A stretch of 63,667 bases of DNA, filler included, from Candidatus Woesearchaeota archaeon (GTDB lineage: Archaea > Nanobdellota > Nanobdellia > Woesearchaeales > GCA-2685855), in the NCBI GenBank assembly GCA_002685855.1. It is 5 parts of 5 records of this genome, joined end to end, with 100 filler letters (N's around TTAATTAATTAA, not from the genome) between each part and the next. Parts side by side here need not be neighbours in the genome. Positions count along the whole stretch, not along the records: positions 1 to 21,309 come from NYYS01000011.1; 4 more parts are not named here. One strand, 5' to 3'. This document shows positions 1,055 to 4,106 of the stretch, one piece after another. The notes under the pieces were generated by a model. It did not search any database and was not told the origin of the DNA. It saw nothing but the letters and a program-made list of their open reading frames with translations. Made by a program: the position numbers and the translations under genes. Each line of letters begins with the position of its first letter. Position 1 is the first letter of the stretch.

Positions 1055-1240
1055 TTACTCCTTCTTTTCAACATGGAACACGTTCTTAGTGCCCTTCCGC
1101 AAATTCCCAAGAATCTGATCCTTGGCCATCTCAAGCAATCCAATAGCCTCCAAAGGAGCCACATCCTTCCCCTGAATATGCGTCTGAATCTGATCACCCA
1201 GCACAAATCGCACCTGAAAAAACTTCCCTTTCTCTGCCAT
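1055..1240 (-). CDS. Small hypothetical protein (61 aa, MAEKGKFFQV...)
   Basis: ATG at 1240 with GGGGTGG SD; divergent from leuS. Confidence 0.65.
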   Translation of the reverse strand: MAEKGKFFQVRFVLGDQIQTHIQGKDVAPLEAIGLLEMAKDQILGNLRKGTKNVFHVEKKE

Positions 1241-1298
1241 CCATCCACAACCACCCCCTAATTTAAGTAGTTTTCCCTCCGAAAAACCATCCATAAAC

Positions 1299-1306
1299 TT
1301 TATAAA
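1299..1306 (+). promoter_or_regulatory. TATA box TTTATAAA of the leuS leader transcript (possibly bidirectional)
   Basis: TTTATAAA preceded by an A-rich BRE-like tract; ATG of the leader uORF 22 nt downstream. Confidence 0.65.
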
Positions 1307-1327
1307 ACTCCCCTTGTAACCAGCTCT

Positions 1328-1372
1328 ATGATCACTCTCTCAGATCACAGGATTCTGCTTCTGTTGAGCTAG
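1328..1372 (+). CDS. Putative leucine leader peptide [14 protein letters not shown] upstream of leuS
   Basis: ATG ATC ACT CTC TCA GAT CAC AGG ATT CTG CTT CTG TTG AGC TAG; four tandem Leu codons; ends 52 nt before the leuS ATG. Confidence 0.7.
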
Positions 1373-1424
1373 AGGGAACTCTGCCCTCAATCTAGATAAA
1401 AAACAAGGCAGAGATCACTGGAAA

Positions 1425-4106
1425 ATGGTCGAATACAACCCAAAAGAAATTGAAAAAAAATGGCAGGAGTTCTGGCAAAAAAATGCCACCTTCAAAGTAG
1501 ATGAGAAAGCAGATAAAAAGTTCTACTGCCTTGAAATGTTTCCCTACCCTTCAGGCGCCCTCCACATGGGTCACCTCAGAAACTACAGTATAGGTGATGC
1601 CTACAGCAGATACAAACGAATGACTGGCCATGCAGTTCTCTACCCTATGGGCTACGACGCATTCGGCCTTCCAGCAGAGAACGCTGCCATAAAAAAAGGA
1701 GCAAACCCCTCTAAATGGACCCATAAAAACATCGACGCCATCAAAGCACAACAACAACGTCTTGGCCTCAGCTACGACTGGGATCGTGAAGTAGCAACCT
1801 GCGATGCAGACTATTACAAATGGAACCAATGGATCTTTCTCCAACTTCTCAAAAAAGGACTAGCATACAGAAAATCTTCCAGCGTCAACTGGTGTCCCTC
1901 ATGCAACACCGTCCTTGCCAACGAACAAGTAGAGGATGGAAAATGCTGGAGATGCAAATCTCTCGTCGACAAAAAGAACCTCGAACAATGGTTCCTAAAA
2001 ATAACAGAATATGCAGAAGAGCTCCTCAACGACCTCGAAACTCTTGATAAGTGGCCTGAAAAAGTAAGAATCATGCAAAAAAACTGGATCGGAAAAAGCC
2101 ACGGCATCGACATCTACTTCAAAGTAGACGGCTCAAAAGAACAACTCACAGCCTACACAACCAGACCAGACACCCTATTTTCAGTAACATTCATCGTCAT
2201 CGCACCCGAACATCCAATCGTCGAAAAACTCATCAAAGGAACAAAACAGGAAAAAACAGTAAAACAACTCATTGAAAAAATCAAGATGCAGCCCGAACTC
2301 GAACGAACCTCTCCCTCAGGAAAAGATAAACTCGGCGCATTCCTCGGAAAATATGCAATCAACCCAGCAAACAATGAAAAAATTCCTATCTACATTGCAA
2401 ACTTTGCACTCCTCGACTATGGAACAGGAATAGTCATGGCAGACGCACACGACGAAAGAGACTTTGAATTTGCAAATAAATACAAAATACCCCTTAAATT
2501 TGTCATCTCCAAAGATGGAAAACCCATAGACCCAAAGAAAGCAGCAGGCGCATACATAGACGATGGCATCCTCTTTGACTCAGGAGAATTCTCAGGCATG
2601 CACAACAGAGAAGCACTACCAAAAATTGCAGAATGGCTCGAAAACAACAAAAAAGGAGAACGAACTATCAACTACAAACTACGAGACTGGCTCATCTCAC
2701 GACAAAGATACTGGGGAACACCCATACCTGTCATCTACTGCGAACACTGCGGCGTCCAACCCGTCCCAGAAAACCAACTGCCTGTCCTCCTCCCTGAAAA
2801 AGTCAAATTTACAGGAGAAGGAAATCCTCTTTCAACAGCAAAAGAGTTTATCCAGACAAAATGCCCCTCTTGCAAACAACCAGCACAACGAGAAACAGAC
2901 ACTATGGATACCTTTTTCGACAGCAGCTGGTACTTCCTAAGATATTGCGATCCAAAAAATACAAAGCTCCCCTTCTCAAAAGAAAAAGCAGACTACTGGA
3001 TGCCTGTCGAGCAATACATCGGTGGTATTGAACACGCAATCCTCCACCTTCTTTATGCGCGGTTCTTCACAAAAGCACTACGAGACCTCAACCTCCTAAC
3101 AACAAACGAACCCTTCTTAAGACTACTCTGCCAGGGAATGGTCATAAAAGACGGCCAAAAGATGTCAAAATCATTCGGAAACGTAGTAGACCCCATGAAC
3201 ATCATCAACGAATACGGTGCAGATACTGCTAGAGTGTTCATGCTCTTTGCAGCACTTCCAGAAAAAGAGCTCGATTGGTCAGATAAGGGAGTCCAATCCG
3301 CCTTCAAATTCCTCAACCGAATCTTCCGTCTCCTCGAACCCGATATAGAAGCAGGATCAGGAGAACTCTCAACCAAAGACCGCTGGATTATCGGAAAAGA
3401 GCATCGAACAATAAAAACAGTCACAGAAAACCTTGAAAAATTCAGGTTCAGCCTGGCAATCGGTGCACTCATGGAATTTGTCAATGCAATCTATAAATAC
3501 AGAGAAAACCAGATTAACAAACTCGTCTATGATTCATTGATTAAAAATCTTTCCCTTCTCCTTGCACCCTTTGCCCCGCACATAGCTGAAGAGATGTGGA
3601 ACCAACTTGGAAACAAAGATCCAATATCAAAAGCACAATGGCCAAAACACAATCCTAAAAAAATTGACCGCGTTGCAGAATCAATAGAAGAACTCATCTC
3701 TGTTGTTACAGCAGACATCTCTTCCCTTAAAAAACTCATAAAAAAAGAACCCAAAAAGATAATCCTCTTCATAGCTGCAGACTGGAAATTCGACTTCGCA
3801 ATACAAATTAAAGATCTCCTGGATAAAACACGCAACCCCGGAGAGATCATGAAAGAAATCTTTTCAACAGACCTTAAACAAAAAAGTGCAGCAATAACAA
3901 AGCTCGTCCCAAAATTAGTAAAGGACCCAACAAAACTCCCTCTTTATGTACTCTCTCAAAGCAAAGAGATATCTGGCCTGGAAGAAGCAAAGGAAGATCT
4001 CGAAAAAGAGTTCTCCTGCACCATAGAAATCATTGCAGAACAAAAAGCAAAAGATCCTAAAGCAGCAAATGCATTTCCAGGCAAACCTGCTCTTCTCATG
4101 GAATAA
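1425..4106 (+). CDS. leuS: Leucyl-tRNA synthetase (bacterial-type core, archaeal-like C-terminus)
   Basis: [19 protein letters not shown] editing motif, [15 protein letters not shown]. Confidence 0.98.

Follow-up and report, generated by a model that had tools for sequence, protein, structure and literature searches.

Leader-peptide control is a textbook mechanism of bacteria, and in the pheM-pheST attenuator of Escherichia coli it governs the gene of a synthetase. Here we consider an archaeal locus of related design. In a stretch of DNA of 63,667 nucleotides (nt) from Candidatus Woesearchaeota archaeon (assembly GCA_002685855.1, genome G000; the whole stretch is hereafter called the window), an open reading frame (ORF) of 14 codons, which carries four tandem leucine codons close to its stop codon, lies between an archaeal promoter and leuS, the gene for a bacterial-type leucyl-tRNA synthetase (LeuRS). 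Judging from sequence, we lean with modest confidence towards the view that this leader ORF serves as a gauge of tRNA-Leu charging, which the ribosome would read and which would tune LeuRS synthesis at the level of translation. Full-text literature searches brought up no leader-peptide attenuator in an archaeon. Leaderless leader peptides are on record, in the accessible parts of the literature, for Deinococcus and Corynebacterium. The accessible part of a Methanosarcina ribosome-profiling study mentions upstream ORFs in general, and the searched part of its upstream-ORF supplement holds no 'tRNA ligase', 'synthetase' or 'leucyl' entry.

By analogy, the nearest working model is probably the leaderless polycysteine short ORF of mycobacteria, in which, according to the accessible part of the report, stalled ribosomes unblock a sequestered ribosome-binding site (RBS) (10.1101/834739). 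As far as that part goes, the two designs share a short ORF, which opens the transcript in mycobacteria and presumably does so here, a series of codons for the amino acid to be sensed, and the lack of a terminator. However, the mycobacterial system is bacterial, responds to cysteine and serves metabolic operons, whereas the present locus is archaeal and combines a promoter of TATA box and B recognition element (BRE) with leucine codons and a synthetase gene; moreover, the former has been proven by mutation and proteomics, whereas the latter consists of sequence evidence and a weak predicted structure.

The nearest architecture would be that of the actinobacterial LEU element, in which the Leu-codon run of an upstream ORF pairs with the Shine-Dalgarno (SD) sequence of leuA (PMC1262725, accessible part). 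Both arrangements have a leucine-run ORF and no terminator, and in both, by prediction in the present case, the run makes a base stem with the downstream RBS region around an inner structure. Nevertheless, the LEU element is bacterial, lies before leuA with a conserved pseudoknot upstream of that gene, and its authors, in the accessible part of their paper, doubt a leader-peptide mechanism; here the gene is leuS and the host archaeal, neither sequence likeness nor an Rfam match to the element is found, and no pseudoknot search was made. In addition, the run of the LEU element pairs with the leuA SD sequence, whereas that of the window is predicted to pair with positions -23 to -5 of leuS, where no SD core is present. 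Classical attenuators are also predicted, in the same part of that paper, before leuS of two Streptomyces species and before trpS of Streptomyces (PMC1262725).

Classical synthetase attenuators resemble the present locus in that the synthetase gene is preceded by a short ORF with many codons for the cognate amino acid, which allows feedback from charging, but they need a terminator hairpin with a U-tract set against an antiterminator. No such terminator exists here: the preliminary description of the locus had noted the lack of a U-tract before leuS, and indeed no T-run occurs in 1366-1424. The T-box likewise controls leuS via uncharged tRNA, and it is present in bacterial relatives of the window LeuRS. 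The metagenome relatives of this enzyme, at 57-59% identity, include the bacterial contigs L033 and L041, both of which have T-box leaders upstream (L033, 1235-1437, 95.6 bits; L041, 1079-1337, 113.7 bits). However, a T-box is an RNA of about 200 nt that binds tRNA directly and contains no ORF, whereas the present leader is an ORF. The leaders of the window and of three of the other genomes described below (G042, G191 and G137) match neither the T-box nor any other Rfam family, and a search of 1000-1700 against Rfam with E values up to 10 returned noise, the best match being PreQ1 with 16.9 bits against a gathering score of 39.

The leader reading frame and its recurrence before leuS

The leader ORF lies in a divergent intergenic region of 130 nt, bounded by a small ORF on the minus strand and by leuS on the plus strand (Table 1). 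Its ATG sits 21 nt after the TATA 8-mer, which is the modal leaderless gap of the genome: in 651 upstream regions, the gap from the 8-mer TTTAWAWA to the ATG of long ORFs is 21 nt in 50 cases and 22 nt in 22 cases, with few at other distances. This peak indicates that most genes of the genome are leaderless. A promoter score was obtained from a position weight matrix of positions -40 to -1 trained on the genome's own genes, and on this scale the context of ATG 1328 reaches 13.8, which exceeds the value of 98% of 657 genes and is attained by none of 1690 internal ATGs. Both measures agree with the earlier claim that the TATA box and this ATG lie at the expected distance for a transcription start. 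The leader ORF thus appears to begin where leaderless messengers of this genome begin, its AUG presumably being the 5′ end of the transcript.

The four tandem leucine codons reported for this ORF are at their places and are followed by one serine codon, the last five sense codons reading Leu-Leu-Leu-Leu-Ser; 52 nt separate the stop codon from the leuS ATG. It had also been remarked that CUG and UUG look rare in the plus-strand genes. This holds for CUG, which makes up 9.6% of the leucine codons in 671 long ORFs, but not for UUG, which with 16.5% is the third most used after CTC and CTT. As a side observation, the hexamer GATCAC occurs three times on the plus strand within 90 nt of the leader (1330-1335, 1343-1348 and 1413-1418); the first two copies form a predicted 5′ hairpin, the third lies just upstream of leuS, and TGATCAC is found once more at 1191-1197.

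To survey relatives, DNA upstream of leuS was taken from 29 genomes of the order, 80 metagenome contigs, the best 29 of a 401-genome sample, 80 places fetched by coordinates and the family of genome G137. After removal of same-place duplicates and pattern-search loci, 216 loci remained, in 205 of which the leuS start was located; 198 loci, 124 of them from genomes of the order and 74 from metagenome contigs, have at least 150 nt upstream of leuS. Besides the window, four genomes of the same order but of three other families carry a Leu-run leader before leuS. In these carriers a TATA element stands 21-25 nt before the ATG, the ORF has 11-16 codons, the leucine run ends 0-1 codon before the stop, and 24-72 nt lie between the stop and leuS. 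G042 (family f43) has the TATA element TTTAAATA with a gap of +22, the leader peptide MQTDCYNYLLALLLLV and a stop-to-leuS distance of 70 nt; in G191 (family f106) the corresponding items are CTTAAATA, +23, MTTTTQLVLALLLR and 72 nt, and in G137 (family f5) TTTAAACA, +21, MINTSWILLLL and 30 nt. G267, which belongs to the genus of G137 in family f5, has a TATA-rich stretch 22-25 nt before the ATG, the leader peptide MKKLLKPLFILLL and a distance of 24 nt. G004, the third member of this genus, has a diverged ORF of 36 codons, which agrees with that of G267 in its first five codons and overlaps the leuS start in another frame. For G042 and G191 there are no close relatives to compare, since the family of G042 consists of one genome and that of G191 contains no other bacterial-type leuS. 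The Leu-rich upstream ORF that the preliminary description had seen in the window is therefore present before leuS in four other genomes and enriched there, about 97% of the relatives being without it.

All four other carriers have an SD core before leuS (SD core being GGAGG, GAGGT, AGGTG or GGTGA at -18 to -4), and by reading, the spacers of G042, G191 and G137 contain no proximal TATA element before leuS. In these three, leuS is therefore probably read from the leader transcript. No T-run terminator is found in G191, G137 or G267. The G042 locus (L003) has, after its stop-codon hairpin, a run of six T about 50 nt before the leuS ATG, which is not directly preceded by a hairpin and has no equivalent in the other four carriers; it could be an archaeal termination signal.

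The association was assessed by a uniform scan of the 216 loci on both strands (594,606 nt), in which a strict TATA element had to be followed after 19-25 nt by an ATG opening an ORF of 5-25 codons. Of the 66 ORFs obtained, five lie on the leuS strand and have their end no more than 150 nt upstream of that gene, and four of these five have at least four Leu among their last seven codons, compared with one of the 61 elsewhere (one-sided Fisher p=3.4e-5; p=3.6e-4 without the window locus). The single Leu-rich ORF elsewhere is inside a leuS coding region. G267 does not take part in the strict scan, as the stretch fetched lacked its start and its TATA lies outside the strict pattern. With a loose TATA definition (1404 ORFs), the same leucine property is seen in 6 of 54 ORFs near leuS and 19 of 1350 others (p=2.5e-4), three consecutive leucines in 6/54 and 41/1350 (p=0.008), and a Leu fraction of at least 0.3 in 9/54 and 112/1350 (p=0.04); one of the six near-leuS matches, that of L308, shares its place with the end of the preceding gene and should probably be counted as noise. 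The association of Leu-run leader ORFs with leuS looks real on these counts, although its true significance is lower than the p values say, because the leucine criterion was set after the cases were known and because G137 and G267 are kin.

Among the 120 matches listed in a scan for an 11-mer with ATG and KWQ codons, the G042 contig alone encodes LeuS. In a pattern search of the 401 genomes for TATA, ATG and four Leu codons, the matches are for the most part signal peptides of leaderless genes, and by reading against the leuS places, G000 and G042 are the only matches at leuS. A third match with the same 11-mer, in G101, was rejected as a carrier: it lies inside a coding region, and the number of such matches is what chance predicts.

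Table 1. Positions of features at the leuS locus, counted along the window (MFE, minimum-free-energy prediction).
Feature	Position	Strand	Remarks
TATA box TTTATAAA, promoter P1 of the leader ORF	1299..1306	+	palindromic; A-rich BRE-like stretch directly 5′
Leaderless upstream (leader) ORF	1328..1372	+	14 codons and stop TAG 1370-1372; counterparts in G042, G191, G137, G267
Four Leu codons CTG CTT CTG TTG	1355..1366	+	12-mer TCTGCTTCTGTT (1354-1365) identical in G042
5′ strand of predicted long-range helix P1	1348..1365	+	end of leader ORF including Leu codons; MFE
Predicted hairpin P2 with stop codon (CUAGAGGG ... CCC ... UCUAG)	1369..1395	+	arms 1369-1376/1384-1395; MFE
CUCUGCC, predicted alternative partner of GGCAGAG 1407-1413	1379..1385	+	overlaps 3′ arm of hairpin P2
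Possible weak second promoter P2, ATAAAAAA	1396..1403	+	21 nt before leuS ATG; context score 4.0
3′ strand of predicted helix P1	1402..1420	+	contains GGCAGAGAUCAC, no SD core; ends 4 nt before leuS ATG; MFE
leuS, bacterial-type leucyl-tRNA synthetase	1425..4106	+	893 aa; Pfam class-I synthetase, LeuRS editing and anticodon-binding domains
Small divergent ORF, boundary of intergenic region	1055..1294	-	79 aa, or 61 aa from ATG 1240

Conservation of the leaders and other readings of the locus

The window and G042 share TCTGCTTCTGTT over the run, and in both a single codon separates the run from the stop. With G191 the window has CTTCTG..GCTAGAGG in common, over the end of the run and the stop. 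Judged as an alignment alone, the 12-nt identity with G042 lacks significance, since it is attained by 9 of 2000 shuffles and exceeded at 2 of 131 other loci, and this lessens its value for the gauge; it counts on condition that both sequences are LLLL ORFs in the same place. CUG and CUU dominate the run in the window, G042 and G191, whereas UUR codons dominate in G137 and G267. The latter two belong to one genus (g5), have LeuS proteins 74% identical, and differ in the run by third-position G/A changes and one codon. No nucleotide motif is common to all five leaders. What the five carriers have in common is apparently leucine beside the stop of a leaderless ORF. Since leucine is conserved while the letters are not, a role at the codon or tRNA level is favoured over a by-product of anti-SD pairing or a protein-binding site.

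The last point bears on the possibility that the conserved part is an RNA or DNA operator for a protein, such as a leucine-responsive regulator or LeuRS itself, the reading frame being incidental. Letter identity between the window and G042 (12 nt) extends across synonymous sites, partly also to G191; TCTGC/GCAGA is found three times in the window leader; and the authors of the LEU element finally proposed a reading of this kind, according to the accessible part of their paper (PMC1262725). However, in G137 and G267 the leucine run persists although it is spelled quite differently, the five leaders share no motif, no candidate binding protein has been identified, and the leucine frame is the frame in all five. 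We regard an operator as rather improbable. For the hairpin loop, a C/D-box small RNA and a tRNA mimic were considered by eye as well and dropped, as box motifs are lacking and the loops differ from carrier to carrier.

A LeuS tree was built by FastTree (LG+gamma) from the first 650 residues of 55 sequences, namely the deduplicated members of L001-L029, L031 and L113-L141 that have 600 residues or more, together with G137 and G191; the remaining metagenome loci were not included. In this tree the window is sister to L132, which has no leader ORF, and G042 belongs to the same well-supported clade of ten, from which position it is separated from the window by a few nodes; G137 groups with G004, and G191 with L126. 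Such scattered carriers call for frequent loss or repeated gain: either an old leader has often given way to a promoter at leuS, or leaders arose several times.

This scatter is one of several points that tell against the leader ORF as a charging gauge. Leu-run leaders were found in 5 of the 124 genomes of the order and in none of the 74 metagenome contigs. In the G000 genome, short ORFs are barely enriched at a gap of 21 nt (11, compared with 2-13 at other gaps), and LLLL occurs in about 4 of 765 short upstream ORFs; together with the size of the scan, these numbers mean that the window taken alone could be a product of chance. At the leuS start of the window, the TATA-like ATAAAAAA stands at leaderless distance. 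The context of ATG 1425 scores 4.0, which beats 62% of genes and is reached by 1.4% of internal ATGs, and positions -18 to -4 (GGCAGAGATCACTGG) contain no SD core. SD cores occur in 42% of the 408 genes of the genome without strong promoter context and in 13% of the 249 with it. To judge from these signals, leuS may also, and perhaps mainly, be made from a second leaderless transcript of its own. With such a transcript possible and an SD core lacking, the long transcript would need re-initiation or an SD-independent start. Finally, in the nearest architecture, mutation of the Leu codons of the LEU element left regulation unchanged, according to the accessible part of the report (PMC1262725).

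RNA-library contigs add a further difficulty. Nine sequencing runs with all or part of the locus are kept as contigs, which give neither strand nor ends, and four of them were examined. One 168-nt contig of the RNA library X5 corresponds to 1168-1335 with no mismatch and a depth of 39.5; it crosses the TATA box and stops 7 nt beyond the leader ATG. This contig is not predicted by a simple model in which transcripts start at 1328 on the plus strand and to the left of 1299 on the minus strand. It is possibly RNA or DNA, which RNA libraries can hold, and possibly one amplified fragment. The RNA library X7 contains a contig of 171 nt within leuS (1916-2084).

Taken together, these observations raise the question of whether the ORF in the window is there by chance, with leuS leaderless from ATAAAAAA at 1396-1403 and the TATA box at 1299-1306 serving something else, such as the small gene on the minus strand or a short transcript not yet recognised. 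The score of the leuS ATG and the missing SD core, the near-background number of ORFs at TATA distance, the LLLL ORFs elsewhere in the genome and the RNA-library contig spanning the TATA box would all fit this, as would the relatives, 68 of 124 of which have a strict TATA 19-25 nt before leuS itself (an SD core is found instead in a further 22). On the other hand, judged by its BRE side the TATA box points to the plus strand, and the minus-strand ATG 1294 is a mere 4 nt away. Chance also fails to account for a design that recurs in four genomes, in three of which (G042, G191 and G137) the spacer has no proximal TATA, and for sequences shared by the window with G042 and with G191 at the same place of the ORF. 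On this balance chance seems unlikely to us, and the charging gauge is retained.

Predicted RNA pairing and the proposed response

In the MFE structure of the window, the end of the leader ORF pairs with the strand just 5′ of leuS in helix P1, enclosing the stop-codon hairpin P2 (Table 1). Pairing of CUCUGCC with GGCAGAG is seen in a 113-nt fold and in folds in which a ribosome masks part of the leader; in the masked state GGCAGAG switches its partner to CUCUGCC. The same two-helix layout is predicted for G042 and G191 from different sequences, with the run pairing with the strand immediately before the leuS start: in G042 the pairing joins CUCU to AGAG of the gene's own SD, and in G191 the partner of the run lies immediately 5′ of the SD. 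In a longer context the Leu run of G137 pairs over the leuS AUG. A hairpin at the place of P2 is present with other sequences in G042 and G191 and absent from G137 and G267, the leader of G267 having essentially no predicted fold. In terms of pairing mass, the leader ORF is the main predicted partner of the leuS start region in the window (11.1), G042 (7.6) and G137 (9.6).

The statistics of these folds add to the points against the gauge. Against 200 shuffles, the fold stability of the window gives z values of -1.35 (22 shuffles as good) and -1.04 (31 as good). Against dinucleotide shuffles, the five leaders give z values of -1.04, -1.38, -0.32, +0.51 and +1.50, none of them better than that. 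The pairing mass between the run and the start region compared with shuffled spacers gives p=0.12 for the window and 0.135, 0.105 and 0.21 for others, the Fisher combination of the four being about 0.04. Stalling was modelled by setting a ribosome on each Leu codon, barring the nucleotides beneath it from pairing and reading the unpaired probability of -20 to +5. On masking, this changes from 0.40 to 0.40-0.51 in the window, from 0.53 to 0.56-0.59 in G042 and from 0.39 to 0.49-0.54 in G137; the predicted opening is thus small, and there is no rise in G191. Of the competing pairings put forward in the preliminary description, all three exist as named, but the three-way switch built from them is statistically indistinguishable from shuffled sequences and is not found in the AT-rich carriers. 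According to these models, an RNA switch is possible in the window but is not a feature common to the carriers.

With these limits, the course of events that we infer for the window, from the transcription start to the role of the pairing, would be as follows. The leuS messenger made from promoter P1 would start with the AUG of the leader ORF, and a ribosome loaded on this 5′-terminal AUG would read the leucine run. When charged tRNA-Leu is plentiful, the ribosome would finish and leave, helix P1 would form over hairpin P2, and initiation at leuS would be low. A shortage of charged tRNA-Leu, to be expected when LeuRS is limiting, would make the ribosome wait on the run and cover most of the ORF; by preventing the pairing of helix P1, the waiting ribosome would allow more LeuRS to be made. 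The whole would amount to translational attenuation without a terminator. For the AT-rich carriers no stable fold is predicted, and therefore the mechanism common to all may instead be ribosome occupancy, acting through re-initiation or protection of the 5′ end.

A translated leader might also act without sensing leucine at all, by bringing ribosomes onto the leadered leuS messenger through re-initiation or unwinding, with the richness in leucine as a by-product. The spacers are short (24-72 nt), no start codon stands between the leader ORF and leuS in the window, G042 or G267, the predicted structural switch is weak, and a general role of this kind has been proposed for bacterial leader genes (PMC4833913, accessible part). 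This explanation, however, leaves unexplained why Leu-run ORFs make up 4 of 5 before leuS and 1 of 61 elsewhere, and why the run is kept although GC-normal and AT-rich carriers differ in the codon box they use for it. Moreover, four of the five carriers have an SD core of their own and no need of re-initiation. We consider it an improbable account of the five leaders, and continue with leucine sensing as the reading that we prefer.

Gene context and biological meaning

Pfam has no family for the small divergent ORF. Its ATG 1240 has a promoter context score of 4.1 and its ATG 1294 one of -4.6; the shorter form of 61 aa is thus the one with the better promoter context. Further to the left, an ORF on the minus strand that runs off the window start (1-1023) contains a K319L-like PKD domain (29 bits, cut-off 27). 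The window contains 352 N; positions 1-21309 are on contig C11, and 21310-63667 on other sequence.

In many genomes of the order leuS lies directly 3′ of the gene for RNA polymerase subunit N (Pfam RNA_pol_N at 56-253 in L003), a linkage that is interrupted by other genes in the window and in G042. This neighbourhood within the order, together with the promoter architecture, indicates that the host is archaeal. Bacterial-type leuS is patchy in the order, being found at E<=1e-60 in 262 of 401 genomes and in one of the three genomes of genus g106, to which G191 belongs; the tally of 262 includes 11 unpublished genomes, none of which is a carrier. Genomes without the bacterial-type enzyme give distant C-terminal matches only and presumably have an archaeal-type enzyme instead.

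The G000 genome has 0.95 Mb, a size in keeping with the DPANN label of the preliminary description, and is rated 94% complete. In its assembly the Rfam tRNA model has 11 matches and ARAGORN makes 6-8 calls, a single tRNA-Leu(GAG) being among them. A search by conserved strings did not find the 3′ end of 16S rRNA in G000, and the SD sequence was for this reason deduced from k-mer enrichment.

In a wider sense, the five carriers suggest that archaea may use leader peptides read by the ribosome as amino-acid gauges on a leaderless start, for which neither an RBS nor a terminator would be needed, and that such leaders may have arisen, or been kept, several times before a horizontally acquired bacterial-type leuS. 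In the AT-rich carriers they would work independently of structure, a ribosome waiting at the 5′ end setting downstream initiation or the fate of the messenger. We offer this broader view tentatively, as falling somewhat short of an even chance. If the leader of the window functions in the way proposed, the sensing of tRNA charging by translation is not tied to bacterial terminators or to SD loading and can be built from an archaeal promoter and a 5′-terminal AUG. The five carriers provide natural variants of the leader. For archaea with small genomes, which have few regulators and depend on a host for amino acids, such a leader would provide feedback control of a synthetase without any regulatory protein.

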